IMG/VR virus record: IMGVR_UViG_2802429241_000009
Reading direction: 5' to 3' (one strand)
DNA: 39,485 bases
DNA from: a virus
Lineage: Duplodnaviria > Heunggongvirae > Uroviricota > Caudoviricetes
Shown: piece after piece, positions 1-38,136 of the stretch
Layout: each line of letters starts with the position of its first letter
Position numbering within the stretch: the first letter of the stretch is position 1
The notes under the pieces: model-generated
Database searches by the model: none
The model's input: only the letters and a program-made list of their open reading frames with translations
What the model was told of the DNA's origin: nothing
Translations under genes and position numbers: made by a program

Positions 1-1251
1 GTGCTTACCGATACAAAATTAAAAAACCTCAAGCCGCAGGACAAACTGTACAAGGTCTCCGATCGTGACGGGCTGTATGTAGCTGTGCTTACGTCAGGCA
101 CGGTCTCGTTTCGTTATGACTACCGTATCAACGGTCGCCGCGAAACACTGGTAATCGGGCAGTATGGGCGTGACGGTATCAGCCTGGCAGAAGCGCGAGA
201 AGAACTGATTGCTGCAAAGAAGCTGCTTAAAGCAGGCCAGTCGCCGGCTGCGGCTAAACGTGACGGTATCAAAAAGATTCGTGGTGCCGAGACGTTTGCG
301 GTACATACCGACAGTTATATGAAACACGTCATCCTGGCTGACAGTACCCGCGCAATGAAGCAGGCGGTGATCGACCGTGACATACTTCCGGTTCTTGGCA
401 ACAAAATGATGGCTGAAATTACCACATCGATGGTTCGTGATTTGTGTGACCGGATTGTCGAACGCGGTGGTCGGGCAACAGCAGTACAGGCCAGGGAGAT
501 CATCAGCAGCGTATACCGTCACGCCAATGACCGTGGTCATGGTTTGTTTAATCCTGCGGCTGACATTAAACCTTCGTCTATCGCCATATTTAAACCACGA
601 GAGCGAACACTGACACCAGAAGAAATTGGCCTGTTCTTCCGCACGTTGGATGCCATTGGTGCTATGGGCACTATGAAAATGGCTTTAAAACTGGTGCTTA
701 TCACTATGGTTCGTAAGGGCGAATTCGCCAATGCAACGTGGGATGAAATAGATTTTAAAAAATGGACATGGACAATTCCTTCAGACCGCATGAAGGGAAG
801 CCGGGCGCATGTTATTTACCTGCCTAAACAGGCTCAGGATATATTGGTCGGGTTGCAGATGTGCGCTGGTGGAAGTGAATATCTGGTTCCTGGTCGTTAC
901 AATTTCAGGAAGCCATTATCTAATGCCGCGCTGAACTCTCTGATCGACAGAACGGTGAAAATAATAAACGAAGATGGTGAGCATATTCAGGACTTCACTG
1001 TACATGATATGCGCCGTACAGCCAGTACGTTGTTGCATGAGGCTGGTTATCCTTCAGACTGGATTGAAAAGGCTCTGGCACATGAGCAGAAAGGTGTGCG
1101 CGCCGTATATAACAAAGCGGAATACGCCAGACAGCGCGCCTACATGTTGCAGCAGTGGGCCGATATGATTGATTCCTGGATTAACGGGGAGCATACGGAT
1201 CTGATTCCGTTCTCCCCGTCGAAGTTTGAGAAGTGGATGGCGGGGGAATAA
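1..1251 (+). CDS. int: Tyrosine-type phage integrase; GTG start at window position 1, so the true 5' end may lie upstream
   Basis: 416-aa ORF; C-terminal HDMRRTAST...LAHEQKGVRAVYNKAEY resembles the tyrosine recombinase catalytic region (R..H..R..Y); N-terminus typical of prophage integrases. Confidence 0.9.
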   Translation: MLTDTKLKNLKPQDKLYKVSDRDGLYVAVLTSGTVSFRYDYRINGRRETLVIGQYGRDGISLAEAREELIAAKKLLKAGQSPAAAKRDGIKKIRGAETFAVHTDSYMKHVILADSTRAMKQAVIDRDILPVLGNKMMAEITTSMVRDLCDRIVERGGRATAVQAREIISSVYRHANDRGHGLFNPAADIKPSSIAIFKPRERTLTPEEIGLFFRTLDAIGAMGTMKMALKLVLITMVRKGEFANATWDEIDFKKWTWTIPSDRMKGSRAHVIYLPKQAQDILVGLQMCAGGSEYLVPGRYNFRKPLSNAALNSLIDRTVKIINEDGEHIQDFTVHDMRRTASTLLHEAGYPSDWIEKALAHEQKGVRAVYNKAEYARQRAYMLQQWADMIDSWINGEHTDLIPFSPSKFEKWMAGE

Positions 1252-1254
1252 CGT

Positions 1255-1449
1255 TTAATAGTTCTGCTGATTTTCTTCCATCTCTGCTTCTGCTGCCAGT
1301 GATTCAATTTTGTTTTCGAATATTGCTGACAGTGTTGCAAATTCAGCATCAGTGACAGCGGGAATTGGAACAAACCTGATCCCGCTGTGTGCAAGCATGT
1401 TTGCAGTTTCAAGGCATTTTCTTAAATCTGCTGGTGATGCCCTGTTCAT
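1255..1449 (-). CDS. Hypothetical small protein (64 aa), last gene of the leftward early operon
   Basis: ATG overlaps the stop of the upstream methylase gene (ATGA overlap at 1446-1449); acidic C-terminus; no recognisable domain. Confidence 0.4.
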   Translation of the reverse strand: MNRASPADLRKCLETANMLAHSGIRFVPIPAVTDAEFATLSAIFENKIESLAAEAEMEENQQNY

Positions 1450-2096
1450 GCAGCACGCTCCCGTCCCTGGTTGTCTGTTGGTGACAGCGGAGCATTGCTG
1501 AATGCATTTGTTAATCCGCCAATATCCAACGCGTATCCAGGGTGTAGTTGCACTGCCGGGTCTTCGCACTGATTACCCCAAACATCGAAGCCATGAGACG
1601 TCTGGCGGGCGAACAGTTCAATGCGAGAAACATCGCCTAATAATTGCACAAGTTTTTCACGAACGATATCTGGCTTTCTTGAATGCTCAAGCCGCGGTGC
1701 GGTAAATGACTGAACGATCCCTGCATTAATGCGCGTAGGTAGTTTTCCCTTTACCGCAAACAGGCAATCTTCACTATTGGCGCGAGTCATGTGTCCCATA
1801 CCCATAACAAGTTTATCTGGTTGTCGACTACCACATTTTATCCACGTGAAGCCCTTCATCGTCATCAGACGGAATCCCCAGGCTTCAACAACTTTTAGTG
1901 CTTCGAGTGGTTGTGTTGGCACCCACCACATGGCCAACAGACAGTTTTCATCGGCCAAATCCCACACAGGAAGGCGGCAGATATCCAGCACACTCATAAC
2001 CGGATATTTAAAACCGGCACCGCGATTACCATCTGCGGCTTTGTCCCGGTATACCCAGGGTGGATCTGCATAGATTAGTGTGTATTTCTTAGTCAT
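1446..2096 (-). CDS. MT-A70 family DNA N6-adenine methyltransferase
   Basis: N-terminal LIYADPPW motif; about 216 aa; start taken at the ATG giving MTKKYT (GTG at 2108 is an alternative). Confidence 0.8.
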   Translation of the reverse strand: MTKKYTLIYADPPWVYRDKAADGNRGAGFKYPVMSVLDICRLPVWDLADENCLLAMWWVPTQPLEALKVVEAWGFRLMTMKGFTWIKCGSRQPDKLVMGMGHMTRANSEDCLFAVKGKLPTRINAGIVQSFTAPRLEHSRKPDIVREKLVQLLGDVSRIELFARQTSHGFDVWGNQCEDPAVQLHPGYALDIGGLTNAFSNAPLSPTDNQGRERAA

Positions 2097-2340
2097 AAAC
2101 CACCCCACAACATCCTATGCCGCTATAGTCGCCACGGCGAAGGCCGTTACCTTTTGTGATACATTGGTCCCTGCGAACCGCGATCCTTGCACGCTCAACA
2201 TCACCAGAAGCAACATCCATACACTGAAGCCAAAGGTAGGCGGCAATTCGGAATTGCCCTTTTTGCTCTCTTTCAATCGCGCGTTTTTCGATCTCTATCG
2301 CCGCAGGAGTAACGGCAACAACCTTTGAAGGGCTGCGCAT
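2089..2340 (-). CDS. Hypothetical protein (83 aa)
   Basis: ORF with AAGG Shine-Dalgarno before the ATG at 2340; 3' end overlaps the methylase start; ORF could extend to 2388. Confidence 0.4.
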   Translation of the reverse strand: MRSPSKVVAVTPAAIEIEKRAIEREQKGQFRIAAYLWLQCMDVASGDVERARIAVRRDQCITKGNGLRRGDYSGIGCCGVVYD

Positions 2341-2497
2341 TGAAACCTTGTTCATGTGATATTTTTCAAGTCGGCTTAACTCTCTCACTTAATCCAACCC
2401 TCTCTGAAAATTAATGCCAGCAGATAAAGCCATGCTGAAACAGAGGCCAGGAATAAGTACCATCCTGACCATTTGCTCCAGTGCTTTAGCAGCACAC

Positions 2498-2746
2498 TCA
2501 TGCCGCGTTGCTCACAGGACGATATACACGTTGCTGAACAGGAGGTTTTTTACCTTGGAACTCTGCCGGGCTTGCTGCCTGACGTTCATCAAGCCAACGC
2601 TCAACTTCATCACGGTTCCATGCGCAGCGTTTGTCAGTGATATACCAGCGTTTAGGAAATTCCCCTGCGCGCTCCATACGGTCGATAGTGCTCCATGACA
2701 GTGGCACCACCGCCAGGAGTTCCTTCTTACCTAATGCACCTTTCAT
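2498..2746 (-). CDS. AlpA-family small HTH protein (excisionase / transcriptional regulator candidate)
   Basis: 82 aa; helix-turn-helix segment KKELLAVVPLSWSTIDRMERAGEFP; good SD (AGAGAGGT) before the ATG. Confidence 0.65.
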   Translation of the reverse strand: MKGALGKKELLAVVPLSWSTIDRMERAGEFPKRWYITDKRCAWNRDEVERWLDERQAASPAEFQGKKPPVQQRVYRPVSNAA

Positions 2747-2795
2747 AAATACCTCTCTTGGTTGCAGTGCGGCGCGTGTTGCGCCGCGGTGGTGG

Positions 2796-3677
2796 TTACA
2801 TAGATGTTTCGTTTAATTCTTCCCGACGAACGCTGTAAACGTCGGTGGCTTTTGCCAGCAGTTCGTCATCATCTGAAAGTTTTTGTGCAATGTATTTGTA
2901 AGCCTTATCCAGTTCGGAGACAGTGCTGTAATTCATCGCTGCGCTGGTAAAGGCCATCAGCATTTCTTCTGGCTCACGGCTATCCGCTTTACGCGTTTGC
3001 TCATCAGGCTTTTTCACTGATTTAGCGTTGATCAGACTGTTCATTCCCGCAGCCGTAGTCATTTGCGGAGTAATGTCTCGCTCAACGCGCGGTGCCGTTT
3101 CCTGTAATTCGTCAGGGGTGTAAACACCAAGAAGTACATCAGGAGCGTGCAGGCGAGCCCATCGTTTCGTGCAAAGATAGGCAAGTTGCTGGCGCGGATC
3201 CTGTTCCCACAATGGAGAGTTACGCACTCCGGCTTGCGCCATACTGATGGTAAGCTCACGTGGTTCTGCTTCTCCTTTAAGGACTGCTGACACAGTTACC
3301 GTCAGATTCGGTGATTTATCTGTTTTGCCGTTAACATTCGACCAGTCACCGCTCCAGCGATAATTCAGGCGTGTCGCTAGCAGGCTGGAAGAGGATACGA
3401 CCGCGTTTACCAACTGTGCTTCGTAGCCTAACGTTCCGTTTACCACATGCGTTTTCTGCGCCACGGCGAAAGGGTTCATTCCCCACTGTGCCGCCTGCAT
3501 GGTCACCGCCAGGCAATCGGCAGGTTTGCCTTCAAGATGTTTCGGTACAGTCACTTTGCTTTGTGACATCAACTCAGCGAAACGCACCAGTTGATTCATG
3601 CCCTCGGAGCTGAAGATTGCCGCAGCAGTGCCTACAGTTGTGCCTGGTTGTGATGTGATTGCGATATCATTGCTCAT
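2796..3677 (-). CDS. RecT/Red-beta family single-strand annealing protein
   Basis: 293 aa; segment PRVERDITP resembles the ERQPERDITPV region of lambda Bet as recalled; start overlaps the exonuclease stop (ATGA). Confidence 0.75.
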   Translation of the reverse strand: MSNDIAITSQPGTTVGTAAAIFSSEGMNQLVRFAELMSQSKVTVPKHLEGKPADCLAVTMQAAQWGMNPFAVAQKTHVVNGTLGYEAQLVNAVVSSSSLLATRLNYRWSGDWSNVNGKTDKSPNLTVTVSAVLKGEAEPRELTISMAQAGVRNSPLWEQDPRQQLAYLCTKRWARLHAPDVLLGVYTPDELQETAPRVERDITPQMTTAAGMNSLINAKSVKKPDEQTRKADSREPEEMLMAFTSAAMNYSTVSELDKAYKYIAQKLSDDDELLAKATDVYSVRREELNETSM

Positions 3678-4495
3678 ACGTACATATCCTGTTTACGTGC
3701 CCAGTCAGGGCGTTTAATAATTTCCACTCCGCCCCATTCATCGTTGATGCGGCATTCGTGATAGGTATTCAGATCCCGGCGGAACAGAGCGTGCCCGGCA
3801 TCGACATCTGGCGCATCCAGCTCGAACACGCGTACCGGATACCGACCACAATCAATGCTTTCGCTCACGGCAAGAAAGAAAAAACCATGCGGCTGACCAG
3901 TAACCCTCATTGCGCCTTCGCGGTACATTGCGTCCTGCACGTGGTAGCGGAATTCCTCGATGTGGCGTGCAAAACGGTCCATATCTGCAACCTTTTTCAC
4001 GTCGACGATCACGTTGTGCTCGTTCAGCCATTTGTCTGGACGAATGCGGCACAACTCACCAGTCTCTTCATCGTTCCAGTACATTGATGCTTCGCAGTAA
4101 CCAGGTGCTTCCAGCATCCAGCGTGCCGCCGGGTGAGCCATTGCGCTATCACGCATCAGCTCCAGTTTCCGCCACTGCTCGGCATCAAGTACCGTAATCC
4201 CCATATCCGCTACATCACGAAGAAATGCCCCTTCGTCAGCTTTACCTTGTTTTGTCCGACGATCGAATTTCGGTGAAACGATGAAGCGTTTGTCAAACTC
4301 TCCAGGTTCCAGAAGCAGACAGTGCAGAGCAGTACCCATGTCCAGTGCAGACTTCTTCTCTTCGTCTTCCGGAGCAGCCTTCACCCATTTCAGAAGGGCA
4401 GGGTTCTTAGCCACCATATCTAGCTGCGACTTACTCACGCCGTCACCGGCGTGGTAGTCCTCGTTGCTGATATCGAAATAAATTCCCGGATTCAT
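3674..4495 (-). CDS. Recombination exonuclease (RecE C-terminal-like PD-(D/E)XK nuclease), partner of the annealing protein
   Basis: 273 aa directly upstream of, and coupled to, the RecT-like gene; start overlaps the upstream stop. Confidence 0.65.
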   Translation of the reverse strand: MNPGIYFDISNEDYHAGDGVSKSQLDMVAKNPALLKWVKAAPEDEEKKSALDMGTALHCLLLEPGEFDKRFIVSPKFDRRTKQGKADEGAFLRDVADMGITVLDAEQWRKLELMRDSAMAHPAARWMLEAPGYCEASMYWNDEETGELCRIRPDKWLNEHNVIVDVKKVADMDRFARHIEEFRYHVQDAMYREGAMRVTGQPHGFFFLAVSESIDCGRYPVRVFELDAPDVDAGHALFRRDLNTYHECRINDEWGGVEIIKRPDWARKQDMYV

Positions 4496-4791
4496 GCCGC
4501 GTCCCTCTGCCCATCAATCTGATCAGCCAGATCCCAGCGGGCGATAATTGCCATTGCCTCGCGACGGTAGGCATCCATCAGTTCTTCGAACTCAGGGCTG
4601 TCTTTAGCAGCCTCCAGTACTTCCTGACGAACGCCTTTGCCTGTTACAACGTCGAAAGTTGAGGACAGTTGATGAAGTCGGATGCTCTCAATCAGTTCAA
4701 CTTGTCGGTCATATAGCTGTTCTGACAGGCGGTAGTCCTTGTCGAATGCCAGCATGATTTTTTGAAGATTTTTCTGCTGATTAACGTTCAT
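4492..4791 (-). CDS. Hypothetical early protein (99 aa)
   Basis: ORF coupled to the exonuclease gene (ATGA overlap); internal ATG giving MNVNQQ chosen because the upstream 50-aa ORF stop overlaps it. Confidence 0.5.
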   Translation of the reverse strand: MNVNQQKNLQKIMLAFDKDYRLSEQLYDRQVELIESIRLHQLSSTFDVVTGKGVRQEVLEAAKDSPEFEELMDAYRREAMAIIARWDLADQIDGQRDAA

Positions 4792-4793
4792 TA

Positions 4794-4946
4794 TCAGCCC
4801 TCCCATATCTCGTTATCGTTGGCCACATCGCGAGCTTCTTTGCTGACGAAAGCCCACTTAATGCCTTCCTGTAAGGTGCGGAACTTCCAGCTCATGAATC
4901 CGCATGCAGTAACGCAGTACCAACCGTTGATGATTTTCCACTGCAT
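4794..4946 (-). CDS. Hypothetical 50-aa protein, first gene of the leftward early operon
   Basis: Not in the ORF track (under 60 aa); ATG at 4946 preceded by GAGG; stop overlaps the next start; sits just downstream of the PL-like promoter and operator. Confidence 0.35.
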   Translation of the reverse strand: MQWKIINGWYCVTACGFMSWKFRTLQEGIKWAFVSKEARDVANDNEIWEG

Positions 4947-4965
4947 AACTTGTTACCTCGGTCTG

Positions 4966-4980
4966 TTACCGTTGAGGTAA
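4966..4980. promoter_or_regulatory. Operator-like palindrome TTACC-N5-GGTAA (left operator region, downstream of PL-like promoter)
   Basis: Exact 5+5 inverted repeat; an extra TTACC half-site at 4953..4957; 62 bp from the site at 5028. Confidence 0.55.
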
Positions 4981-5008
4981 TGATTATGCGTATCTGGTTT
5001 GGTGTCAA
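4981..5008 (-). promoter_or_regulatory. PL-like promoter candidate for the leftward early operon
   Basis: Perfect -35 TTGACA on the minus strand (plus-strand 5003..5008); weak -10 candidates (TAATCA at 16-bp spacing or CATAAT at 14 bp); bracketed by operator sites. Confidence 0.4.
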
Positions 5009-5027
5009 TAGATATGAGTTAAAAAAA

Positions 5028-5042
5028 TTACCCATAAGGTAA
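5028..5042. promoter_or_regulatory. Operator-like palindrome TTACC-N5-GGTAA (left operator region, upstream of PL-like -35)
   Basis: Exact inverted repeat between the repressor terminator and the TTGACA -35. Confidence 0.55.
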
Positions 5043-5052
5043 TCACATAGGC

Positions 5053-5077
5053 AATAAAAAAGCCGCCAGAAGGCGGC
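5053..5077 (-). terminator. Intrinsic terminator downstream of the repressor gene
   Basis: Minus-strand hairpin GCCGCC-TTCT-GGCGGC followed by TTTTTTATT. Confidence 0.75.
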
Positions 5078-5099
5078 TTACTTACTGAAAAGTATGATT

Positions 5100-5684
5100 T
5101 TATTGTTTGTTTTTTTCGTTCTGGTTGATGACAAATTCAATGTAACTTTCGATCTTTGCTTTCTCGGTTTCGGGTAACAATGCGTAGCGCGAGCGATCAT
5201 AGTTGATGGTCGCAGGGTCGTGCGGGTGAATCAGTAATTCATAGCCGTGACGCCCGAATGCGGATGCAACATTCTCCAGGGTGGAAATGGAAACGCTGAC
5301 CTCATTGTTTAACAGGCGGCTGATTGTCACCTGGGCGACGCCGGATGCGCGGTGTAGTTTTCCCTGCGTTGAAAGGTCGCGGCTTTCGCTCATCCAGCGT
5401 TCCAGGTTGTGAGCCGCCAGCTGACCAATGTCGCTAGGGCCGACAGGCTGAAAACCTTCCTGAGAAAGCGAGCGATCGATATCAAGCCAGTTACGGGGTT
5501 TATTGGCGGCAGCTTCAATTTTTCGCGCAACCTGGTCGCCGATAACCTTCTTGCCAAGAGCCCAGCGGTTTACCAGATTTGCCTGAGTTCCAAGTTTTTC
5601 AGCCATCCGCGTCTGAACACCATTGAATTCACGGTCGATCAAGTCGTTGAGATTTTGCCTGCGGACGTCCTGGATACTTTTCAT
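5100..5684 (-). CDS. Prophage repressor candidate (CI-like position, two HTH-like segments, no visible autocleavage module)
   Basis: 194 aa, divergent from the Cro-like gene; followed by an intrinsic terminator; no Ala-Gly/Cys-Gly plus Ser-Lys peptidase module recognised by eye. Confidence 0.65.
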   Translation of the reverse strand: MKSIQDVRRQNLNDLIDREFNGVQTRMAEKLGTQANLVNRWALGKKVIGDQVARKIEAAANKPRNWLDIDRSLSQEGFQPVGPSDIGQLAAHNLERWMSESRDLSTQGKLHRASGVAQVTISRLLNNEVSVSISTLENVASAFGRHGYELLIHPHDPATINYDRSRYALLPETEKAKIESYIEFVINQNEKNKQ

Positions 5685-5739
5685 TTTCTGGAAAATCGCC
5701 TCATATATGAATCAGTAGATGATTCAATTTAAAGCAATA

Positions 5740-5754
5740 TTACCCAACAGGTAA
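5740..5754. promoter_or_regulatory. Operator-like palindrome TTACC-N5-GGTAA (immunity region site 1)
   Basis: Exact inverted repeat between the divergent repressor and Cro-like genes. Confidence 0.6.
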
Positions 5755-5756
5755 AT

Positions 5757-5771
5757 GCACCCCATAGGTAA
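5757..5771. promoter_or_regulatory. Operator-like variant GCACC-N5-GGTAA (immunity region site 2)
   Basis: One half-site degenerate; 17 bp centre-to-centre from site 1. Confidence 0.4.
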
Positions 5772-5784
5772 CTATCCTTGATTT

Positions 5785-5813: not shown

Positions 5814-5838
5814 CTGAAATAAATATCAGGCAATAGCT

Positions 5839-6069: not shown

Positions 6070-6090
6070 TATCCAGCCACAACCATCTGT

Positions 6091-6118: not shown

Positions 6119-6124
6119 CTATTC

Positions 6125-6139: not shown

Positions 6140-6217
6140 TAAAAAACCAAATATGGTTGATCAAATTTTCCAATTGTGCAAAATAGCCAATATCAATAAC
6201 AAAAAGGGGCGGAAAAA

Positions 6218-32509: not shown

Positions 32510-32667
32510 GGCAATCACCTTTTAGTATGGTTAATCACCACCTGAGGTGCAAATCTCGTTGGTGGTGAGACGTACAGGGTTTGCACTACCGGCTAAAAGG
32601 ACCCGGCGCACCTTTCGGTGCCCCTGCACGTCCCACCATAATTCTGGCATGACTGTGCTATACGCAT

Positions 32668-32690
32668 AAAAAAACCACGTCTGGCGTGGT
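32668..32690 (-). terminator. Intrinsic terminator inside the antirepressor upstream region (attenuator or 3' end of a short RNA)
   Basis: Minus-strand ACCACG-CCAGA-CGTGGT followed by TTTTTTTAT. Confidence 0.6.
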
Positions 32691-32750
32691 ATGCGCCTTT
32701 TAGTAATCCGGGGTGCAAATCCCGGCACTGGATTTTGCCAGTGCTCGATT

Positions 32751-32779
32751 ACTATGGCACAAGAGGAGTGCGATGTAAA
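32751..32779 (-). promoter_or_regulatory. Candidate leftward promoter of a short structured RNA / antirepressor leader
   Basis: Minus-strand -35 TTTACA (plus 32774..32779), 17-bp spacer, -10 CATAGT (plus 32751..32756); predicted start near 32744. Confidence 0.3.
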
Positions 32780-32780
32780 T

Positions 32781-32795
32781 TTACCGCAAAGGTAA
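32781..32795. promoter_or_regulatory. Operator-like palindrome TTACC-N5-GGTAA adjacent to a candidate leftward promoter of the antirepressor leader
   Basis: Exact; abuts the candidate -35 (TTTACA on the minus strand). Confidence 0.5.
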
Positions 32796-32873
32796 TGATA
32801 AACGCTGATAAATATAAAAATCAACCGTATTTGGTTGATTGCGTTTAACGCTTGATCACCTGAAAGCAAGATA

Positions 32874-32888
32874 TTACCTTTAAGGTAA
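32874..32888. promoter_or_regulatory. Operator-like palindrome TTACC-N5-GGTAA just upstream of the zinc-ribbon protein gene
   Basis: Exact; overlaps the alternative ATG at 32888. Confidence 0.5.
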
Positions 32889-32908
32889 TGTTATTGTGGG
32901 GAAAAGCA

Positions 32909-33637
32909 ATGGAAGTTTTCTGGATAGTTGTTGGTGTGGTTGCGGTGATTATTTACGTTATCAACCAGAACAAGACTAAGATCTCTGATCGTACGGTCGT
33001 TAATCATAACAAAACGATAAAGACCGAAGATGGGGAGATAACGATTAATCGTACACAGGTGATAGAACACACCTCTACTCAGTTTCAAAAAACTGGAGGT
33101 AATGCGCCTAATATTTCCGCACCTCCTGCTTATGATAGTGCGGTAATCCAGACATATTATAAACAGCAGGAGTTAGCAAAAGAGAGGCAACTGATTCAGC
33201 CAAAGCCGTTTACAGCTGAGCTTCCACCTGGAGTGTCAACGCGTCCGGCATATCATGGAAGATTCCCTGGTGATGACATATCGTCTCAGTCATCTAAAAA
33301 AGCACCTCAGGCAGTATCAGAGCCAGCAAGAATACCTTCTGTATCGCCGCCAAAAGAAGAATCAGCTAACAGAGTTTCAAGTGGTAGCAAGCAGTGCTTG
33401 CGATGCAGAATAAACCTTCCATATGAAAAATTCAGGAAATCGTCAAAAAATCCAGATGGATTGACTAAGTGGTGTGCAAGGTGTCTCGATGGCCCAAAGA
33501 ATACACGCCATATGAAGTGGTGCCCAATTTGTAATGTCCGCAGAAAACGAACCAGTTTTTACCCTAATAATCAAAATGCGGATGGCTTAATGGCATGGTG
33601 CAAAACGTGCTGGGACGAGCACAAAGCGAAACGATAG
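32909..33637 (+). CDS. Membrane-anchored protein with a tandem C-terminal zinc-ribbon-like repeat
   Basis: N-terminal TM (VFWIVVGVVAVIIYVI); Ser/Pro-rich linker; two repeats of C-x2-C-x(17-20)-DGL-x3-WC-x2-C; ATG at 32888 is an alternative start. Confidence 0.55.
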   Translation: MEVFWIVVGVVAVIIYVINQNKTKISDRTVVNHNKTIKTEDGEITINRTQVIEHTSTQFQKTGGNAPNISAPPAYDSAVIQTYYKQQELAKERQLIQPKPFTAELPPGVSTRPAYHGRFPGDDISSQSSKKAPQAVSEPARIPSVSPPKEESANRVSSGSKQCLRCRINLPYEKFRKSSKNPDGLTKWCARCLDGPKNTRHMKWCPICNVRRKRTSFYPNNQNADGLMAWCKTCWDEHKAKR

Positions 33638-33660
33638 GCCGCTCTTGCGGCCTTTTCTTT
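33637..33660 (+). terminator. Intrinsic terminator after the zinc-ribbon protein gene, between convergent genes
   Basis: GGCCGC-TCTT-GCGGCC followed by TTTTCTTT. Confidence 0.65.
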
Positions 33661-33916
33661 ATGTGGTTTGTTTTCGTAGTTGTTCGGCACAATAGTCGAG
33701 ATGTGTTTGCAGATCCTGCATAGACATCTGTGAGCTGGTGACGTAGTTAATCAGTGCAGTCAGTTCGGCAAGTGGGCCATCGACATTAAATCCATCCTTA
33801 TCGAGATCCCGGAGTAATTTCATCAAGTGCGATCCCTCCACCAGTGATCTGACGCCTCCCGGCGTGTGAATCCTTTCGGTAAATCCGTCTTCCAGTGGAT
33901 AGTGATACCGCTGCAT
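33659..33916 (-). CDS. Small antirepressor-domain protein (85 aa), putatively LexA-controlled
   Basis: Homologous by eye to the C-terminal about 80 aa of the BRO-N protein at 31823..32509 (shared IH.P.GV, LM.LL, DG..V.G..AELT, D.QTH..Y); GGAGAAG SD; LexA-box-like site 21 nt upstream. Confidence 0.55.
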   Translation of the reverse strand: MQRYHYPLEDGFTERIHTPGGVRSLVEGSHLMKLLRDLDKDGFNVDGPLAELTALINYVTSSQMSMQDLQTHLDYCAEQLRKQTT

Positions 33917-33935: not shown

Positions 33936-33955
33936 AACTGTATATTTATACAGTA
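33936..33955. promoter_or_regulatory. LexA box (SOS box) candidate
   Basis: AACTGTATATTTATACAGTA: CTGT-N8-ACAG with an all-A/T spacer, 18 of 20 matches to TACTGTATATATATACAGTA as recalled; 21 nt upstream of the ATG of the minus-strand gene 33659..33916. Confidence 0.7.
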
Positions 33956-34111: not shown

Positions 34112-36244
34112 ATGACGGTCTCAACCGAAGTTGACCACAACGAATACACCGGTAACGGCGTTACGACATCATTTCCGTATACCTTCCGTATTTTCAAAAA
34201 ATCCGACCTGGTTGTTCAGGTGTCTGACCTGAACGGGAACGTAACAGAATTGGTTCTGGATACCGGTTATACGGTAACAGGGGCGGGCACTTATAGTGGC
34301 GGTTCTGTGGTTCTTCCGTCTCCGCTTGCTACTGGATGGCGAATTACGATAGATCGTGTGCTTGATGTAGTGCAAGAGACAGACCTTCGCAATCAGGGAA
34401 AGTTTTTTCCCGAAGTGCATGAAGATGCCTTTGACTATCTGACGATGCTGATCCAGCAATGTTTTGGATGGTTCAGACGTGCATTGATGAAACCCACGTT
34501 GCTTGCAAAATATTATGATGCAAAGCAAAACAGAATTTCTAACCTTGCAGATCCATCATTTGAGCAGGACGCTGTAAATAATCGCTCAATGCGTAATTAT
34601 GTCGATGCTGCAATCGCCGGGGTTGTTGGTGGTTTTGGCTGGTTTATTCAGTATGGTTCTGGGGCAGTATACAGAACGTTCCAGGATAAGATGCGAGATA
34701 CCGTCAGTGTTCGCGATTTTGGGGCGAAGGGGGATGGTTTTAGTGATGATACCCCATATATTCAGCAAGCAAATGATACAGCCACATCAATTGGTGCCAC
34801 ATTACATTTCCCAAGAGGGGTTTACGTTTGTACTGATGGGATTGATAAAACGTGCGAGTGGACTGGTGTTGGTGCGGCAAAAATAGGTGTATTTCCACTA
34901 AACGATGATAAAGTTTATATGGTTCCAGGAAATAAGCACAAATTGCCTGGAACTTGCCTCTTATTCAAAGGTACGGGTAGTAAGGTATTTACTACAGGAA
35001 GAAGTGATAAATTCTCATCTATGCGTTATTGTATCCGTAATATCGGTCGAAAAGATAAAGGGCTCACTGCATTTGGTAGGGATTTTTCTGTCGTTTGCGA
35101 TTTTGACTTTAAAGATCAAGATGGAAACATAACGCAACCTAATAATGATAATTCTGCGGATTATGATGTTGGGTTGATACTTGACAATACCGATTTGTCA
35201 GGACCAGTTAATGTTACTGTTGGTGGTTACTTTAAAAAATCTGGAATTGTACACATGGGGCAGGATCCCGATGGTTGTACAATTATCAATACACGCACAA
35301 TGGGGAACATTGGTCTTGCTATTATTGGTGATCAAACAGGAACTAACAGTGCATTCAATATGCACGGTGGCGCTATTTTTGGCAATGATCACCATAGTCG
35401 AAACACCGAACAAGGTGTTGAAAAATGGGGTGAGCATGCACTTTACATTGATATTCCATCATCGTCAGGAAACGGTTCTAGAAACGGTATTTCTTTTTAC
35501 GGAACCTGGTTAGCGACTAAGTTGGATGTTCCTGTAAAATATGACAGATGTGGAGCCGTTCAGTATTTTGGTGTGGTGTTTGAGAATGCAACACAAGCAG
35601 GTAGCCAACAAGCTGGAGGTATTAAAAAACAAATTGGAACCAGTAATACAGGTGATATAGGTTTCTTTGGGTGCAGATTTAATTCAGACCAGATACGTAT
35701 TTCTGGTGCCTTATTGGAGACTGCGACGGAATCGACAGTGATCGTTTCTGGAAGTAATGCTGGATATGGTGTTGAATTTTGGAAAGGAAAGGTTGGAGGG
35801 CGTTTTACAGGAAGCAAAAATCAAACAAATATTCAACTAACGGATGATCCAACAAAAACAACTAGTGGTATTGTTCTTCGTCGTGACAATACAGGAAATT
35901 TCCATGTAATGAAAGATAATGACATTAAATTATCAGTTGATGATAAAGGCATTATCACTAGATCATCTTATACAGTTGTTACTGTTTCTGCTGGAGAAAT
36001 TACTGTTACCAGAAACTTTCATAGATTATCTGGAGGGGCGCAAGAGTTATCTACTATTAATGGTGGTAATGAAGGAATGAGGGTAATTCTTACACGTAAT
36101 ACATCAGCGGATGACATAACATTGAAGAATCAGATAGGAAACCTTCGTATCAATGGTGATTTCATGTTAGGTGCTTTTGACACCATCGAATTGATCTACA
36201 TCGGAGGATACTGGAATGAGATTTCACGTGTAAATCGCTCTTAA
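34112..36244 (+). CDS. Tailspike / tail fiber with beta-helix depolymerase-like central domain
   Basis: N-terminus MTVSTEVDHNEYTGNGVTTSFPYTF resembles the conserved podovirus tail-fiber anchor domain; VRDFGAKGDGFSDDTPYIQQA resembles pectate-lyase-type beta-helix starts; distal part AT-rich. Confidence 0.8.
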   Translation: MTVSTEVDHNEYTGNGVTTSFPYTFRIFKKSDLVVQVSDLNGNVTELVLDTGYTVTGAGTYSGGSVVLPSPLATGWRITIDRVLDVVQETDLRNQGKFFPEVHEDAFDYLTMLIQQCFGWFRRALMKPTLLAKYYDAKQNRISNLADPSFEQDAVNNRSMRNYVDAAIAGVVGGFGWFIQYGSGAVYRTFQDKMRDTVSVRDFGAKGDGFSDDTPYIQQANDTATSIGATLHFPRGVYVCTDGIDKTCEWTGVGAAKIGVFPLNDDKVYMVPGNKHKLPGTCLLFKGTGSKVFTTGRSDKFSSMRYCIRNIGRKDKGLTAFGRDFSVVCDFDFKDQDGNITQPNNDNSADYDVGLILDNTDLSGPVNVTVGGYFKKSGIVHMGQDPDGCTIINTRTMGNIGLAIIGDQTGTNSAFNMHGGAIFGNDHHSRNTEQGVEKWGEHALYIDIPSSSGNGSRNGISFYGTWLATKLDVPVKYDRCGAVQYFGVVFENATQAGSQQAGGIKKQIGTSNTGDIGFFGCRFNSDQIRISGALLETATESTVIVSGSNAGYGVEFWKGKVGGRFTGSKNQTNIQLTDDPTKTTSGIVLRRDNTGNFHVMKDNDIKLSVDDKGIITRSSYTVVTVSAGEITVTRNFHRLSGGAQELSTINGGNEGMRVILTRNTSADDITLKNQIGNLRINGDFMLGAFDTIELIYIGGYWNEISRVNRS

Positions 36245-36338
36245 CTTCTTATCGAAAATAGAGGTTATTTTTATTCATATATGGTTTATGTATCATAAAG
36301 CCACCAGTTAATTGGTTACACACTTAAAAGGTGGTTTT

Positions 36339-36743
36339 ATGATAGCTCATCCAACAAGTGAGTCTTTAAATCAATGGCTTAGCATGGGGTCTCTTGCTGC
36401 TGTTATTGCTGGGGTTCCTCCGGAGGTGGCTCTTGGTGCTTTATCTGGCGCGGTGATTTTTGTTACCTCAGCTGTAGAGTATCCGATCCGCCGTCGGGTG
36501 CTACTGTCGATGCTCAGCTTTCTTTGCGGCCTTCTCTTCTACAAACCAGCAGCATCAATTCTTATCGGCATAGCCAGCCTGATCCCTACCATCACGCAGG
36601 ACTCTTTTGAAAAAGGGATTGTTTTCTCTGCTGGCGCATTCGTGTCAGCAATTGTCGCCGTGCGTATTGGTATATGGCTCTATCACCGTTCCGATAATCC
36701 ACGCGAGTTAATTCCGGGGAGAAAAGACGATGGTAACGCATGA
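36339..36743 (+). CDS. Holin/antiholin-like multi-pass membrane protein
   Basis: Hydrophobic ORF at the start of the lysis cassette; ATG after AAAGGTGG (track ORF starts at TTG 36312). Confidence 0.5.
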   Translation: MIAHPTSESLNQWLSMGSLAAVIAGVPPEVALGALSGAVIFVTSAVEYPIRRRVLLSMLSFLCGLLFYKPAASILIGIASLIPTITQDSFEKGIVFSAGAFVSAIVAVRIGIWLYHRSDNPRELIPGRKDDGNA

Positions 36744-37038
36744 TTTTTTTTTGCTTATCACCAATGCAGTTATTTGCACTGGCATAGCAATTCGCGTTGT
36801 CACATTCCGGCGTAACGGCTCTCAACACCGAAGGTGGGGAGGATGGCTTGCTTATTTCCTGATTGTTGCTGCGGCCAGTATTCCTGTTCGTGTCGCCTAT
36901 GCAATCTGGTTACGTACGCCAATGGCTGTGGATTTATCTGAGGTCATTATCAACGCTGTCATGCTAGCTGCGGTTATTAAAACGCGCGGTAACGTCGTTC
37001 AAATTTTCAAAGTATCGAGGTCTAAATATGGAGATTAA
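36730..37038 (+). CDS. Holin-like membrane protein (about 3 TM segments)
   Basis: 102 aa hydrophobic protein immediately upstream of the endolysin. Confidence 0.55.
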
Positions 37039-37657
37039 ACAATTCCAGCGAGCTGCTGGTATTAGCGAGGCGTTGGCCTCACGCTGGTTCTCGCATATAA
37101 CTTCTGCGATGAAAGAGTTTGGTATCAGCAAACCCGAAGATCAGGCAATGTTTATTGCTCAGGTCGGGCATGAGTCTGGGGGCTTCACCCGGTTGCAGGA
37201 AAATTTCAACTACAGCGTCACCGGACTGGCTAACTTCGTTCGGGCTGGGCGTCTCACTCAGGGACAGGCCAACGCATTGGGGCGCCGTGCTGGTGAACCA
37301 CCATTGCCACTTGATCGCCAGAGAGCGATCGCCAATCTGGTGTACAGCAAACGCATGGGGAACAATGCCTCTGGTGATGGCTGGAATTACCGTGGCCGCG
37401 GACTTATCCAGATTACCGGTTTGAATAACTATCGTGATTGCGGAAACGGCCTGAAAGTGGACCTGCTGGAGAATCCTGAACTGTTGGCGCAGGACGAATA
37501 TGCGGCTCGTAGCGCGGCGTGGTTCTTCGCCAGCAAAGGATGCATGAAGTATACCGGCGATATTGCACGTGTAACTCTGATTATCAATGGTGGCCGGAAC
37601 GGCATCGACGACCGGCGCGCGCGGTACATCACTGCCAGTAAGGTGCTGGCGGTATGA
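37028..37657 (+). CDS. Endolysin, glycoside hydrolase family 19-like
   Basis: [15 protein letters not shown] resembles the GH19 signature; GHESGGF segment; position between holin and Rz. Confidence 0.8.
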
Positions 37658-38136
37658 TCTGGGCATTCGCAAAAGCATACTGGAAACAGTTGGTTATCAT
37701 GGCGATGCTTGCTGTTCTGGTCATATCAGGAGTTGTTGCCTGGAATGTACACGGTAGCCGTCAGTACGACGCCGGGTATGCACAGGCGAAGGAAGACCGC
37801 AAAGCTGAAGATGAGAGAGTTCGTCAGCACTACGAACAGGAGAAAGCGACCAATGAACGTGAAGCTCAGCAGAGGATCGACCAGGCGCGCAATGATGCTC
37901 TTGATGCTGCCGCTCGCGCTGGCCGGTTGCAGCAACAACTCTTTGCCATCCGTGAGCAGCTCAGGCAGTATAACGCCATTGTCGGCGCTGGGACGTCAGC
38001 CGCAGACACCGGAGTTTTGCTTGCCGACGTGCTCAGCAAATCTCTCGAGAGAAACAGACAACTGGCAGAGTATGCTGACCGGGCATCCGAAGCCGGAAGA
38101 GTCTGCGAAAAACAGTACGACACTCTGACCAGATAG
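37654..38136 (+). CDS. Rz-like inner-membrane spanin
   Basis: N-terminal TM then coiled-coil, Arg/Gln-rich periplasmic domain; ATGA overlap with the endolysin stop; contains an embedded +1-frame lipoprotein ORF. Confidence 0.7.
37853..38128 (+). CDS. Rz1-like outer-membrane lipoprotein spanin (embedded in Rz, different frame)
   Basis: ATG after AGGAGA; lipobox LPLALAGC; Pro/Ser-rich mature part; entirely within the Rz gene. Confidence 0.55.
   Translation: MNVKLSRGSTRRAMMLLMLPLALAGCSNNSLPSVSSSGSITPLSALGRQPQTPEFCLPTCSANLSRETDNWQSMLTGHPKPEESAKNSTTL

Follow-up and report, generated by a model that had tools for sequence, protein, structure and literature searches.

The first 38,259 nucleotides of the stretch of DNA analysed here (39,485 nucleotides in full, hereafter the window) are almost certainly, with a probability of about 0.97, a prophage that looks complete and belongs to Uetakevirus (the epsilon15/phiV10 group of phages); its attL lies outside the window. 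Judged from its genes, it is an ordinary and apparently intact member of this group of temperate short-tailed phages. An earlier note had described the element as a hybrid of T7-like morphogenesis with lambdoid immunity and replication. The hybrid layout is real, yet it is the textbook layout of the epsilon15/phiV10 group, and the architecture is already known.

Relatives and ends of the prophage

The megablast matches were phiV10, ZX5, HEMP4, TL-2011b and phiv142-3 (96-98% nucleotide identity), and in the nucleotide alignment the prophage was collinear throughout with Escherichia phage phiV10, reaching around 98% identity from the terminase to the virion proteins. The intergenomic similarity of the whole prophage was around 78% to phiV10, 83% to ZX5, 37% to epsilon15 and 0% to T7. 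Thus, the guess of an epsilon15/phiV10-type temperate podovirus was right, and the best matches of the nucleotide and protein comparisons did not belong to another lineage with another gene order; no result spoke against the identification. By tblastn, the prophage encodes full-length counterparts of nearly all phiV10 core proteins, at 93-100% amino acid identity except for the holin (79%) and RecT (73%), whereas it lacks phiV10 gene p03 and the O-acetyltransferase (oac). We checked the gene order (Table 1) by ORF listing, Pfam and PHROG profiles, and tblastn to phiV10 and epsilon15.

Regarding the ends, position 1 of the window is the start codon of the integrase (98.8% amino acid identity to that of phiV10, tblastn). 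In phiV10 and ZX5 attL lies around 190 bp upstream of int, but here the left end falls outside the window. An attP/attB core, attgagtgggaatgatt, has been published for phiV10, epsilon15 and ZX5 (PMC9782041). On alignment, the attR core matches this published att site at the 3'-end of guaA, which places the insertion at the end of that gene, with the phage/host junction at 38259/38260. The element had been drawn as 1-38136, but it ends at attR (38259). Positions 38260-39485 are host DNA with around 91% nucleotide identity to E. coli and to the other Escherichia representatives retrieved, none of them closer. Such a prophage adjoins yfgI in 358 complete E. coli genomes.

Table 1. Features of the prophage and of the host flank, in order of position.
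Feature	Position	Strand	Evidence or remark
Tyrosine integrase, P4-type arm-binding and catalytic domains	1-1251	+	PF13356, PF00589, PF22022
DUF1382 gene	1255-1449	-	
MT-A70 adenine methyltransferase	1446-2096	-	also PADLOC type II MTase model
PerC-like activator	2089-2388	-	
Small membrane ORF	within 1255-2746, between PerC-like and AlpA-type genes	-	
AlpA-type regulator, probable excisionase	2498-2746	-	
RecT annealing protein	2796-3677	-	PF03837/PF12684 for the pair with RecE-like
RecE-like PDDEXK exonuclease	3674-4495	-	PF03837/PF12684 for the pair with RecT
Two small early ORFs, 104 and 50 aa	4492-4946	-	homologues of epsilon15 gp36, gp37
Repressor Rep, 194 aa, HTH_3	5100-5684	-	PDB 5D50_A 'Repressor', E 4e-42, residues 1-190
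Cro-position gene, 76 aa, divergent from rep	5839-6069	+	assigned from position alone
DnaT-domain initiator	6393-7235	+	PF17948/PF06992 for the replication pair
Lambda-P-family helicase loader	7207-7983	+	PF17948/PF06992 for the replication pair, E 1.7e-55
Accessory 'nin/ea-like' genes	8101-11308	+	PF06356, PF13935, PF04448; relatives' annotations
Epsilon15 gp49-like regulator, 112 aa	10970-11308	+	just upstream of late operon
Terminase small subunit TerS	11349-12023	+	PF03592; PHROG 51, PHROG 2 for the terminase pair
Terminase large subunit TerL	12020-13495	+	as TerS, for the pair
tRNA-Arg, anticodon UCU, reads AGA	13812-13888	-	ARAGORN; Rfam RF00005, 73 bits
68-aa homologue of epsilon15 gp3	14316-14522	+	tblastn
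Portal, T7 gp8 family	14537-16216	+	PF12236, E 2.7e-187; PDB 8CK0_A portal, E 8e-179
Bbp19-like protein, 98 aa	16213-16509	+	PF25181
Acidic Ala/Pro/Glu-rich 231-aa protein, scaffold position	16512-17207	+	position, composition
Major capsid protein, epsilon15 gp7 family	17222-18208	+	PF20911, E 2e-149
Bbp16-like protein	18260-18697	+	PF21190/PF21628 for region 18260-19417
114-aa protein	18699-19043	+	
Epsilon15 gp10-like capsid staple/decoration protein	19088-19417	+	PF21628
Tail adaptor, 201 aa, predicted T7 gp11/'tail tubular protein A' fold	19417-20022	+	AF2 model, pLDDT 95.8
Tail nozzle, T7 gp12/'tail tubular protein B' counterpart	20022-22493	+	PDB 8CK1_A 'Tail Nozzle', E 1e-217
154-aa virion protein	first of two within 22493-23502	+	T7 gp13 position
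181-aa virion protein, T7 gp14 family	second of two within 22493-23502	+	PF24072 T7_gp14
Three large virion/ejection proteins, 837, 600, 824 aa	23502-30294	+	PHROG 992, 1145, 684
Small hydrophobic ORF	30304-30477	+	
Small hydrophobic ORF	30490-30786	+	
DUF4760 protein	31074-31613	-	PF15956
Bro-N/Ant-family antirepressor-like protein	31823-32518	-	PF02498; PHROG 130 'anti-repressor Ant'
C4 antisense RNA	32558-32643	-	Rfam RF01695 (77.8 bits)/RF01394 (67.4 bits) for the RNA pair
isrK-type leader RNA	32668-32744	-	as C4, for the pair
Membrane-anchored Cys-rich (zinc-ribbon-like) accessory protein, 249 aa	32888-33637	+	PHROG 6762
Small antirepressor Ant, 85 aa, SPC32H type	33659-33916	-	PDB 5D50_E 'Anti-repressor protein', E 3e-47
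LexA box TACTGTATAAATATACAGTT, near-consensus	33936-33955	-	pattern search; 21 nt upstream of ant start codon
Tailspike	34112-36244	+	PHROG matches within residues 1-225; PF12708
Lysis cassette: membrane protein, holin, GH19 endolysin, Rz with embedded Rz1	36339-38136	+	
attR core ATTGAGTGGGAAT, last codons of guaA	38247-38259	+	alignment to phiV10 attP and K-12 guaA 3'-end
Host yfgI	38412-38954	-	outside phage
Host yfgH	38970-39485	-	outside phage
Operator palindromes ATTACC-N5-GGTAAT, 17 bp each	starts 4965, 5027, 5739, 8020, 8082, 11394, 11412, 14210, 31742, 32780, 32873, 33992		at most 1 mismatch

Virion genes and their likeness to T7

The order of portal, scaffold position, capsid, adaptor/nozzle, internal virion proteins and tailspike was found as the earlier note had it, with the terminase genes upstream of the portal, an integrase and an internal tRNA. 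The claimed absence of a phage RNA polymerase also held, since no ORF matched one and the large ORFs had no RNA polymerase match in Pfam. The T7 likeness of the morphogenesis genes is real at the level of families and folds, starting with the portal, which shares its Pfam family with T7 gp8. The hybrid is not a recent chimera: none of the morphogenesis genes has BLAST-level similarity to T7. Tblastn of the window proteins against T7 gave a single weak match, that of the DUF1064 protein to T7 gene 3.

The adaptor model matched 8CK1_E (TM 0.88), 9EFK (TM 0.73) and KP32 TTPA (5MU4) in Foldseek, as well as T7 gp11 itself (7BOX/6R21/7EY7; E 3e-6 to 1e-5, TM around 0.62), so the modelled 201-aa protein has the gp11 adaptor fold. 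Neither adaptor nor nozzle had a sequence-level match to Tube or Phage_nozzle, the Pfam families for T7, and the nozzle did not match PF25675. The nozzle also matches 9EFK_M, the LME-1 nozzle (E 2e-15). Its link to T7 runs via the solved nozzles of Carin-1 and LME-1, with which it is homologous and whose tails have been described as T7-like (PMC12407071). The two small internal virion proteins (22493-23502, + strand) belong to PHROG 308 and 418, 'internal virion protein'; the second falls, as T7 gp14 does, in PF24072 (31.2 bits, cutoff 27).

The three large proteins are homologues of epsilon15 gp15, gp16 and gp17 (97-99% amino acid identity to phiV10 and 28-59% to epsilon15, tblastn), and the 837-aa one carries a lysozyme/transglycosylase-like segment at residues 249-398 (PDB 9VVP_L; 7Q47_A endolysin). 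The tailspike has an epsilon15-type N-terminal particle-binding domain (around residues 1-165), and its 68-72% identity to phiV10 and epsilon15 is restricted to these residues. Its receptor-binding domain differs from both and is pectate-lyase-like. Over its C-terminal 514 aa the tailspike shares 78% identity with a tail protein of phage alia (147 kb).

Among the other head genes, the terminase is 99% identical to that of phiV10 and the major capsid protein 99.7%, with 43% to epsilon15 (amino acids, tblastn). The true start of TerS is probably at 11427 or 11430; the long version of the ORF contains a hairpin (11358-11375) and the operators at 11394 and 11412. The scaffold gene proposed in the earlier note fits in position and acidic composition, on which its name rests, and the 231-aa protein had no match in Pfam or NCBIfam. 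The label 'protease' from PHROG 458 thus had no support from these two databases.

Immunity, early genes and proposed life cycle

The immunity region had been called lambdoid, and this applies to the divergent repressor/Cro layout only. Going by the Rep and Ant homologues and by the LexA box, the mechanism is LexA-Ant-Rep antirepression of the SPC32H type, not lambda-like. By alignment, Rep is closely related to the SPC32H repressor of known structure, and it is 100% identical in amino acids to phiV10 p40 (tblastn); its Pfam search gave HTH_3 alone, without the S24 autocleavage peptidase domain. Ant is nearly identical over its full length to 5D50_E, the partner of 5D50_A in the solved Rep-Ant complex of SPC32H, and equivalents of the LexA box stand at the same offset from ant in phiV10, ZX5 and epsilon15. 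According to Kim and Ryu (2013; cited in PMC7380047), LexA controls antirepression in SPC32H. The 76-aa protein in the Cro position is homologous to epsilon15 gp39 and phiV10 p41, and had no match in Pfam or NCBIfam.

In the RefSeq record of epsilon15, 'repressor' binding sites with the identical operator motif are annotated. The motif had 15 matches at up to 2 mismatches, with 1.0 expected, and those of Table 1 are dispersed across 4965-33992. Some lie on either side of rep and cro, and others stand ahead of the late and portal operons, the tailspike and the accessory (moron) genes. During lysogeny Rep most likely binds these palindromes, and because they precede or flank so many operons, a single Rep would silence the whole genome. 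Rep itself has no autocleavage domain. For induction we propose the Ant route: as established for SPC32H, DNA damage would remove LexA, Ant would be made and would pull Rep off the DNA.

A second control may act on the Bro-N antirepressor-like gene, which probably starts at the ATG at 32509. Directly upstream lie the C4 and isrK RNAs, in a module of the P1 immI type. The loops of C4, CCUUUUAG and GUGCAAA, are perfectly complementary to sites in isrK and in the leader of the Bro-N gene, where the Shine-Dalgarno sequence is also covered. Pairing of these loops with the ribosome-binding site would gate the gene. Over-expression of the ZX5 homologue promoted lytic growth (PMC9782041). A 112-aa 'ORF' at 32531-32869 overlaps the C4/isrK region (32558-32744) and is probably no gene.

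The early functions would comprise RecE/RecT recombination, replication from the DnaT-domain initiator with the lambda-P-type loader, and an AlpA-type excisionase. The leftward early genes span 1255-4946 (- strand); those at 1255-2746 gave PF07131, PF05063, PF06069 and PF05930 and are 95-100% identical to phiV10 p32-p36, and the 104- and 50-aa ORFs are 99-100% identical to phiV10 and 51-79% to epsilon15 (amino acids, the latter two by tblastn). The RecE/RecT-like genes, correctly recognised before, are two genes here and in ZX5, whereas phiV10 is annotated with a single fused gene. For replication, an O/P-like pair had been named. P stands as a member of the lambda family (82% identity to phiV10), but the initiator appears O-like only by positional analogy, as it carries a DnaT domain; it is another allele than that of phiV10 (46% identity).

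The late operon, from terminase to lysis genes, would be read by the host polymerase, as the phage encodes no RNA polymerase of its own. The capsid would be of the epsilon15 type, with gp7-type coat protein and gp10-type staple, and the tail machine of the T7 type, with T7-family portal, gp11-fold adaptor (presumably a 12-mer ring, as in the solved LME-1 tail) and nozzle (presumably a 6-mer, likewise). The gp14-like protein and the three large ejection proteins would also be part of the virion, along with six tailspikes that cleave O-antigen.

The tRNA-Arg(UCU), antisense to the late operon, is shared with phiV10 and ZX5, whereas epsilon15 has none. AGA accounts for 7.6 of every 1000 prophage codons, around 3-4 times its frequency in E. 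coli genes, and the tRNA probably aids its reading.

Accessory and lysis genes

The 'nin/ea-like' set comprises DUF1064, Eae-like (159 aa), Ead/Ea22-like (329 aa), 77-aa, DUF551 (186 aa) and 93-aa proteins, and 8689-10684 is a mosaic patch relative to phiV10. The variable accessory (moron) patch at 30304-31613 is absent from phiV10 and gave no match in PADLOC. The 249-aa Cys-rich protein, which phiV10 and ZX5 lack, has weak endonuclease VII and Lar-like zinc-ribbon matches. A terminator-like hairpin lies at 6091-6110, past the Cro-position gene. In the lysis cassette, Rz/Rz1 occupy around 37853-38128, and its proteins are 79-96% identical in amino acids to phiV10 p27-p30 (tblastn).

Identity of the prophage, its insertion site and its relatives

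Megablast of both halves of the window against 50,697 phage records gave best matches that were all Uetakevirus, namely vB_EcoP_ZX5 (ZX5), HEMP4, TL-2011b, phiv142-3, PAS61, phiV10 and the O157 typing phages 9 and 10, with 96-98% identity, the cover being 84-90% in the first 20 kb and 47-76% in the second half. BLASTN against phiV10 and ZX5 showed full collinearity, the window being circularly permuted as expected for a prophage: positions 11309-30297, from the small terminase gene (TerS) to the last large virion protein, corresponded to phiV10 1-19338 at ~98%, and positions 1-6162 to phiV10 26927-33149. The gene order is also that of Uetakevirus, that is, int, early-left genes, rep/cro, replication, TerS/TerL, portal, capsid, tail, virion proteins, ant, tailspike and lysis. 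Regarding the whole prophage (1-38259), the BLASTN estimate of intergenomic similarity was ~78% to phiV10, ~83% to ZX5, ~37% to epsilon15 and 0% to T7. The ICTV assigns a phage to a genus if its whole genome is similar in nucleotides, by about 70% or more, to that of a member; the prophage reaches this level with phiV10 and ZX5, although not with epsilon15.

The earlier note had pointed to the epsilon15/phiV10 type, which is right, as the nucleotide matches and the collinearity with phiV10 show. It had also presented the layout as a hybrid of T7-like morphogenesis order and lambdoid immunity and replication. The gene order is indeed present, but it is no new chimera and represents the standard architecture of a described genus. 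This architecture is therefore already known, being the defining layout of a genus with sequenced, imaged and partly crystallised members. Because epsilon15, phiV10, ZX5 and E. coli prophages in their hundreds all have it, the layout is old and characteristic of the lineage; related prophage sequence occurs in roughly one tenth of the complete E. coli genomes. The prophage is not a member of the T7 family (Autographiviridae), whose phages are strictly lytic and encode a single-subunit RNA polymerase, since it is temperate and has no such polymerase.

The window begins at the start codon of the integrase, which has 98.8% amino acid identity to that of phiV10. Domain matches bear out the integrase that had been read from the sequence, and a repressor and an att junction are likewise present. 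The similarity to phiV10 ends at 38259 and chromosomal DNA starts at 38260, with the same arrangement of yfgI and yfgH that is found beside such prophages in 358 complete E. coli genomes. A 17-mer, ATTGAGTGGGAATGATT, is common to the phiV10 attP and the 3' end of guaA in K-12, and it is the published attP/attB core of phiV10, epsilon15 and ZX5 (PMC9782041). Integration at the 3' end of guaA through the core attgagtgggaat(gatt) is seen at attR, which is followed by yfgI, whereas attL and guaA lie upstream of the window.

None of 5,426 complete E. coli genomes was more than 95% identical to the host flank; the identity was ~91% with E. coli K-12, E. whittamii, E. ruysiae and Escherichia sp. E1V33, and 78-80% with E. 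albertii and with an Escherichia sp. isolate related to it. The 40-mer at the attR junction had no exact match in the species-representative genomes, where the best result of the yfgI protein scan was 91% nucleotide identity. Because the flank is only ~91% identical to the Escherichia representatives and does not exceed 95% with complete E. coli, the host is probably an Escherichia-like bacterium of a non-coli Escherichia lineage. The annotation would mark a guaA-site prophage in a non-typical Escherichia host.

phiV10 (NC_007804) and ZX5 (MW722083) are 97-98% identical to the prophage in nucleotides from int to cro and from TerS to the virion proteins, and share with it the attP core, the guaA site, the tRNA-Arg(UCU), the LexA box, the small antirepressor gene and an identical repressor. 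The overall similarity is lower because of mosaic patches. Compared with these isolated phages, the prophage has a different initiator allele (6163-7452), a different nin/ea-like (Ea22/DUF551) block (8689-10684) and different moron (accessory) genes (30298-33658); the phiV10 gene p03 is deleted (13583-13611) and the O-acetyltransferase gene oac is absent. No patch is new, because all of them occur at 92-98% identity in E. coli prophages.

The tailspike is also mosaic. Its N-terminal domain is of the epsilon15 type (68-72% amino acid identity over residues 1-165), while the C-terminal 514 aa share 78% identity with a tail protein found in the 147-kb phages alia and vB_Eco_J-01, and this receptor-binding domain is unlike that of all isolated Uetakevirus phages. 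Between the tailspike and the lysis genes we found no O-antigen acetyltransferase or other conversion gene, whereas phiV10 and epsilon15 have one.

With epsilon15 (NC_004775), the type of the group, the prophage has in common the gene order, the gp7 capsid and gp10 staple families, the operator motif and the arrangement of LexA box and ant, and the adaptor, nozzle and integrase are 85%, 88% and 87% identical in amino acids. Nevertheless, the capsid and repressor proteins are only 43% and 42% identical; epsilon15 lacks the tRNA and, by tblastn, a lambda-P homologue, its RecT/RecE had no tblastn match to the prophage pair, and it carries O-antigen polymerase conversion genes.

Positions of prophage and flanking features in the window
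Feature	Position	Strand	Remark
Repressor gene	5100-5684	-	194 aa
Replication initiator gene	6393-7235		
Lambda-P-type loader gene	7207-7983		PF06992, E 1.7e-55
Terminase genes (TerS, TerL)	11349-13495		TerS PF03592; TerL PHROG 2
tRNA-Arg(UCU)	13812-13888	-	
Portal gene	from 14537		PF12236
Scaffold-position gene	16512-17207		231 aa
Adaptor gene	19417-20022		201 aa
Nozzle gene	20022-22493		823 aa
Bro-N/Ant-family gene	31823-32518	-	
C4 antisense RNA	32558-32643	-	Rfam RF01695, 77.8 bits
isrK-type RNA	32668-32744	-	Rfam, 67.4 bits
Small antirepressor gene	33659-33916	-	85 aa
LexA box (predicted)	33936-33955		CTGTATAAATATACAG = TACTGTATAAATATACAGTT
Tailspike receptor-binding domain	in 34700-36352		
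Lysis genes	36339-38136		
attR core ATTGAGTGGGAAT	38247-38259		last 13 phage bases = final guaA codons
Host yfgI	38412-38954	-	flanking chromosome
Host yfgH	38970-39485	-	flanking chromosome
Operators, at most one mismatch (n=12)	4965, 5027, 5739, 8020, 8082, 11394, 11412, 14210, 31742, 32780, 32873, 33992		

The virion genes and their relation to T7

The order portal, scaffold-position gene, capsid, adaptor, nozzle, gp13/gp14-like genes, large internal proteins and fibre runs parallel to that of T7 genes 8-17, and the proteins are of similar size. As had been noticed before, the terminase genes lie upstream of the portal and the phage has no RNA polymerase: there was no such tblastn match to the T7 genome, and no RNA polymerase family was found in any large ORF. 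When all the proteins of the window were compared with T7 by tblastn, no morphogenesis protein was matched, the one weak match being that of a DUF1064 protein to T7 gene 3. At the family level, the portal and T7 gp8 both belong to PF12236 (E 2.7e-187 and 2.8e-113, respectively), and a 181-aa protein belongs, like T7 gp14, to PF24072 T7_gp14 (31.2 bits against a cutoff of 27). The T7 families of the scaffold (PF05396), capsid (PF21703), Tube (PF17212), nozzle (PF25675) and gp13 (PF11090) were not matched by proteins of the window.

The adaptor resembles T7 gp11 in fold, not in sequence, where PF17212 gave no match. By hhalign, with profiles of 26 and 75 sequences, the probability of a relation to gp11 was below 1%, and searches of the PDB with profile HMMs of the adaptor did not reach T7. 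An AlphaFold model from the single sequence was dropped (pLDDT 38) and we used the one built on a 75-sequence alignment (pLDDT 95.8). In Foldseek, this model matched the connector of Carin-1 (8CK1_E) with a TM of 0.88, the adaptor of LME-1 (9EFK) with 0.73 and four entries of T7 gp11 (7BOX, 8E4G, 7EY7 and 6R21) with ~0.62, the latter at E 3e-6 to 1e-5 and 12-15% identity; it also matched the tail tubular protein A of KP32 (5MU4). By sequence, the nozzle is clearly homologous to the "tail nozzle" of Carin-1 (E 1e-217) and to its LME-1 counterpart (E 2e-15). Thus, the reading of these two genes as tail tube A/B-like was correct by fold for the adaptor, and is probably so for the nozzle through its homology to Carin-1 and LME-1. 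Actually, an HHpred note in the epsilon15 RefSeq record already ties gp11 to the T7 tail tubular protein A.

Both phages have solved tails of the T7 type. For Carin-1 (a Cobetia phage; 8CK0/8CK1), the E values are 8e-179 for the portal, 5e-26 for the adaptor and the nozzle value already mentioned, and for the homologous adaptor and nozzle of LME-1 (a Legionella phage) they are 1e-4 and 2e-15. Both phages have other hosts and belong to other genera, and the rest of their genomes is unrelated to the prophage as far as compared. In the LME-1 particle, portal and adaptor are dodecamers, the nozzle is a hexamer and the fibres form six trimers; its tail closely resembles the T7 tail complex and most closely that of Carin-1, termed another T7-like virus, and LME-1 is also a temperate element whose T7-like structural genes have no sequence similarity to T7 (PMC12407071).

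What the prophage has in common with T7 is the order from portal to fibre, the Pfam families of portal and gp14 and the fold of the gp11 adaptor. The prophage differs in its temperate life with an integrase, in the capsid family (PF20911 instead of PF21703), in additional capsid-associated Bbp16-, Bbp19- and gp10-like genes, in having tailspikes in place of fibres and in the lack of any BLAST-level similarity. The enzymatic domain is also placed differently: the 837-aa protein has a lysozyme-like segment, matched in PDB sequences, in its middle, whereas in T7 the domain is at the N-terminus of the gp16-like protein. For the 600- and 824-aa proteins no relation to T7 gp15 or gp16 was detectable. 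The relation of the tail module to T7 is one of ancient homology and not of recent exchange.

A recent chimera, in which a T7-like (Autographiviridae) structural module was newly recombined into a lambdoid prophage, would agree with the parallel gene order, the similar protein sizes and the two shared Pfam families. However, we reject it as hardly credible: it is contradicted by the 0% intergenomic similarity and the lack of any tblastn match of a morphogenesis protein, by an adaptor that is ~14% identical to gp11 and recognised only by fold, by the different capsid families and by the same layout in epsilon15, phiV10, ZX5 and so many E. coli prophages. Equally improbable is a P22-like (Lederbergvirus) or other lambdoid temperate podovirus. 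A podovirus-type temperate genome in an enterobacterium, with Ead/Ea22, Eae, DUF551 and lambda-P genes, an antirepressor region and a tailspike, could suggest it, but the best nucleotide matches are all Uetakevirus, the portal is PF12236, the repressor has no S24 domain and the lysis genes come after the tailspike rather than before the terminase. Furthermore, the adaptor model matched P22 tail chains only at E 0.2-0.7 and TM 0.3-0.35, against 3e-6 and 0.62 for T7 gp11. This identity was rejected as well.

The phiV10-like identity being accepted, the prophage could still be a defective (cryptic) remnant that no longer forms particles, given the loss of p03 and oac and an attL that lies outside the window. 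We consider this improbable, although less so than the two previous explanations. All the genes for terminase, portal, capsid, tail, ejection, lysis, integrase, repressor, Ant and replication have their full length, and comparison with phiV10 and ZX5 showed neither frameshifts nor stop codons in them. Moreover, p03 and oac are accessory, and oac is not annotated in ZX5, which is an isolated infectious phage (PMC9782041).

The head genes of the phiV10-like prophage are of the epsilon15/BPP-1 kind, with a coat protein of the gp7 family (PF20911, E 2e-149), a gp10-type staple (PF21628, E 7e-52) and Bbp16- and Bbp19-like proteins. The protein at the scaffold position is acidic and rich in Ala, Pro and Glu, and had no Pfam or NCBIfam family. 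PHROGs labels it "protease", but a role as scaffold seems more probable than that of a protease. The search of NCBIfam with this protein, the three large virion proteins, TerL, a gp49-like protein and others gave nothing meaningful, and TerL had no match among PDB sequences.

Regarding TerS, the long frame from 11349, which is the phiV10 annotation, holds a strong terminator-like hairpin (11358-11375) and two operator palindromes, and an in-frame pair of ATG codons at 11427/11430 agrees with the TerS start in ZX5 and epsilon15. TerS is probably 198-199 aa long, with 11349-11432 being a control region of the late operon.

In the library, the adaptor profile also matched proteins from outside the window (P0121, P0122 and P0126). 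Many representatives of the adaptor family have the 200-aa adaptor domain 3 to 9 times in tandem and in diverged form within a single chain, such as 3 copies in 596 aa, 4 in 745 aa and 5 in 958 aa. As the copies differ in sequence, trivial repeats from the assembly do not explain them. PHROG 9239 (741 positions, 'tail tubular protein') may be a tandem adaptor of the same kind, and fused adaptor rings would be structurally curious.

Repressor, antirepressors and operators

The immunity region had been described as lambdoid. This holds for the divergent genes at the repressor and Cro positions, but the predicted mechanism is not lambda-like: there is no S24 domain and the pair is of the SPC32H Rep/Ant type. 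The repressor gave only helix-turn-helix matches in the Pfam scan, with no S24 peptidase (autocleavage) domain, and its alignment to the 5D50 repressor chain in the PDB ran from one end to the other (E 4e-42). The small antirepressor, annotated merely as hypothetical in phiV10 and ZX5, was nearly identical to the chain named "Anti-repressor protein" in 5D50 (E 3e-47). A predicted near-consensus LexA box lies 21 nt upstream of its start codon, and there is an equivalent box with the same offset in phiV10, ZX5 and epsilon15. In SPC32H, an epsilon15-like Salmonella phage, the self-cleavage of LexA is described as letting the antirepressor be made, which inactivates the repressor through direct contact between the two proteins (Kim and Ryu 2013, via PMC7380047). 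Judging from the homology of both proteins to the crystallised pair and from the LexA box upstream of ant, the immunity of the prophage is predicted to be an SPC32H-type LexA/Ant/Rep antirepression switch, and we suggest labelling it as such instead of lambda-like. The differences from SPC32H are that the repressor has diverged in the 5D50 alignment and that the prophage carries an additional Bro-N antirepressor with predicted C4 RNA control.

The palindrome ATTACC-N5-GGTAAT occurred at 15 sites with at most two mismatches, against 1.0 expected. The 12 putative operators with at most one mismatch flank the repressor gene on both sides, follow the P gene, directly precede the probable TerS start, precede the operon of the gp3-like gene and the portal as well as the tailspike, and surround the antirepressor region. 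The motif is that of the repressor sites annotated in the epsilon15 RefSeq record, though the two repressors have diverged so far. Through such dispersed operators, one repressor would directly silence early, late and accessory promoters.

Three of the four matches to CTGT-N8-ACAG (13681, 18223 and 35532) were not taken as LexA boxes, as they have spacers containing G+C or lie in coding sequence. Those at 13681-13696 (between TerL and portal) and 18223-18238 (between capsid and Bbp16) are intergenic and have G+C in their spacers; the latter is identical in phiV10 and ZX5, and the former has a near-identical counterpart at the corresponding position. A generic promoter scan stayed at or below the shuffle expectation, and a terminator scan yielded few hairpins.

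The second antirepressor-like gene encodes a Bro-N/Ant-family protein and has a C4 and an isrK-type RNA directly upstream. The C4 loops CCUUUUAG and GUGCAAA are exact complements of CUAAAAGG and UUUGCAC, and these 8-nt and 7-nt targets occur together twice, in isrK and in the ant leader, where CUAAAAGG overlaps the Shine-Dalgarno sequence of the ATG at 32509. The RNAduplex energy of C4 with the ant leader was no better than that of shuffled sequences, 68 of 500 reaching it, and therefore the argument for C4 rests on the exact complementarity of the motifs. A 112-aa ORF (32531-32869) drawn over both RNAs is probably not a gene.

In the immI region of phage P1, a C4 RNA lies upstream of ant and its targets are duplicated. 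The prophage has in common with P1/P7 immI the position of C4 and the copies of the targets up- and downstream of it, the downstream copy on the ribosome-binding site; it differs in that we identified no icd-like ORF, the upstream copy is in an isrK-type RNA and the antirepressor is a Bro-N protein. By analogy, C4 is predicted to gate the Bro-N antirepressor as in P1. Over-expression of the ZX5 homologue of this protein favoured lytic growth, and that study treats it as the only antirepressor and does not mention LexA in its text (PMC9782041). Tentatively, and with some doubt, we propose that two antirepressor inputs, the 85-aa Ant gated by LexA and the Bro-N protein gated by C4/isrK, could feed into one genome-wide repressor network. 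The Bro-N input would then act as an SOS-independent induction or anti-immunity switch, while the dispersed operators would let the repressor silence late and moron promoters directly. We found no study of such a combination for Uetakevirus.

Replication genes, tRNA and accessory genes

The earlier note had also named O/P-like and RecE/RecT-like genes. The P-like gene and the recombination pair (PF12684 and PF03837) stood up to the family searches, but the O-like gene is so only by position, as it has a DnaT DNA-binding domain and no match to the lambda O family. Shared with lambda are the divergent repressor and Cro-position genes, a lambda-P loader, an integrase with a probable excisionase and accessory genes of the nin/ea type. 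Unlike lambda, the prophage has no S24 domain of the CI type, in which autocleavage is stimulated by RecA, a DnaT-domain initiator stands for lambda O and RecET for Red, the operators are spread over the genome and the late operon ends with the lysis genes, which stand after the tailspike and not upstream of the terminase. None of the scanned ORFs belonged to an N or Q antitermination family.

RecT and the RecE-like exonuclease (2796-4495, minus strand) are separate genes here and in ZX5, whereas the phiV10 record has a single RecE-RecT fusion of 1761 nt; the N-terminal part of RecT differs from that of phiV10 (73% identity, with gaps). A DUF1064 protein (8101-8445, plus strand) gave a weak tblastn match to T7 gene 3, endonuclease I (E 8e-4, 41% over 44 aa), and may be a junction-resolving nuclease.

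The internal tRNA that had been noticed is a tRNA-Arg(UCU). By ARAGORN it is also in phiV10 and ZX5, whose records list no tRNA feature, and absent from epsilon15. AGA makes up 7.6 per 1000 codons of the prophage, being enriched in late genes such as those of the tailspike and the 600- and 824-aa proteins, and ~2 per 1000 in E. coli genes. The likeliest role for the tRNA would be to supplement a rare host tRNA, which is the usual explanation for phage tRNAs. An 83-aa ORF (13631-13882, plus strand), the counterpart of phiV10 p04 ('hypothetical protein' in RefSeq), overlaps the tRNA on the opposite strand and is probably an annotation artefact. This ORF, the one over the C4/isrK RNAs and the "protease" label on the scaffold-position gene are likely misannotations of the reference records that are worth flagging.

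The moron set of the prophage consists of two small hydrophobic ORFs, a DUF4760 gene and a gene for a 249-aa membrane-anchored, Cys-rich protein. PADLOC matched none of the moron genes, a methyltransferase being its sole match; they may be candidate exclusion or defence genes. In the two stretches that they occupy (30304-31613 and 32888-33637), the ORFs of 57 and 98 aa are very hydrophobic, and the 249-aa protein has an N-terminal membrane helix and a Cys-rich, zinc-ribbon-like C-terminus.
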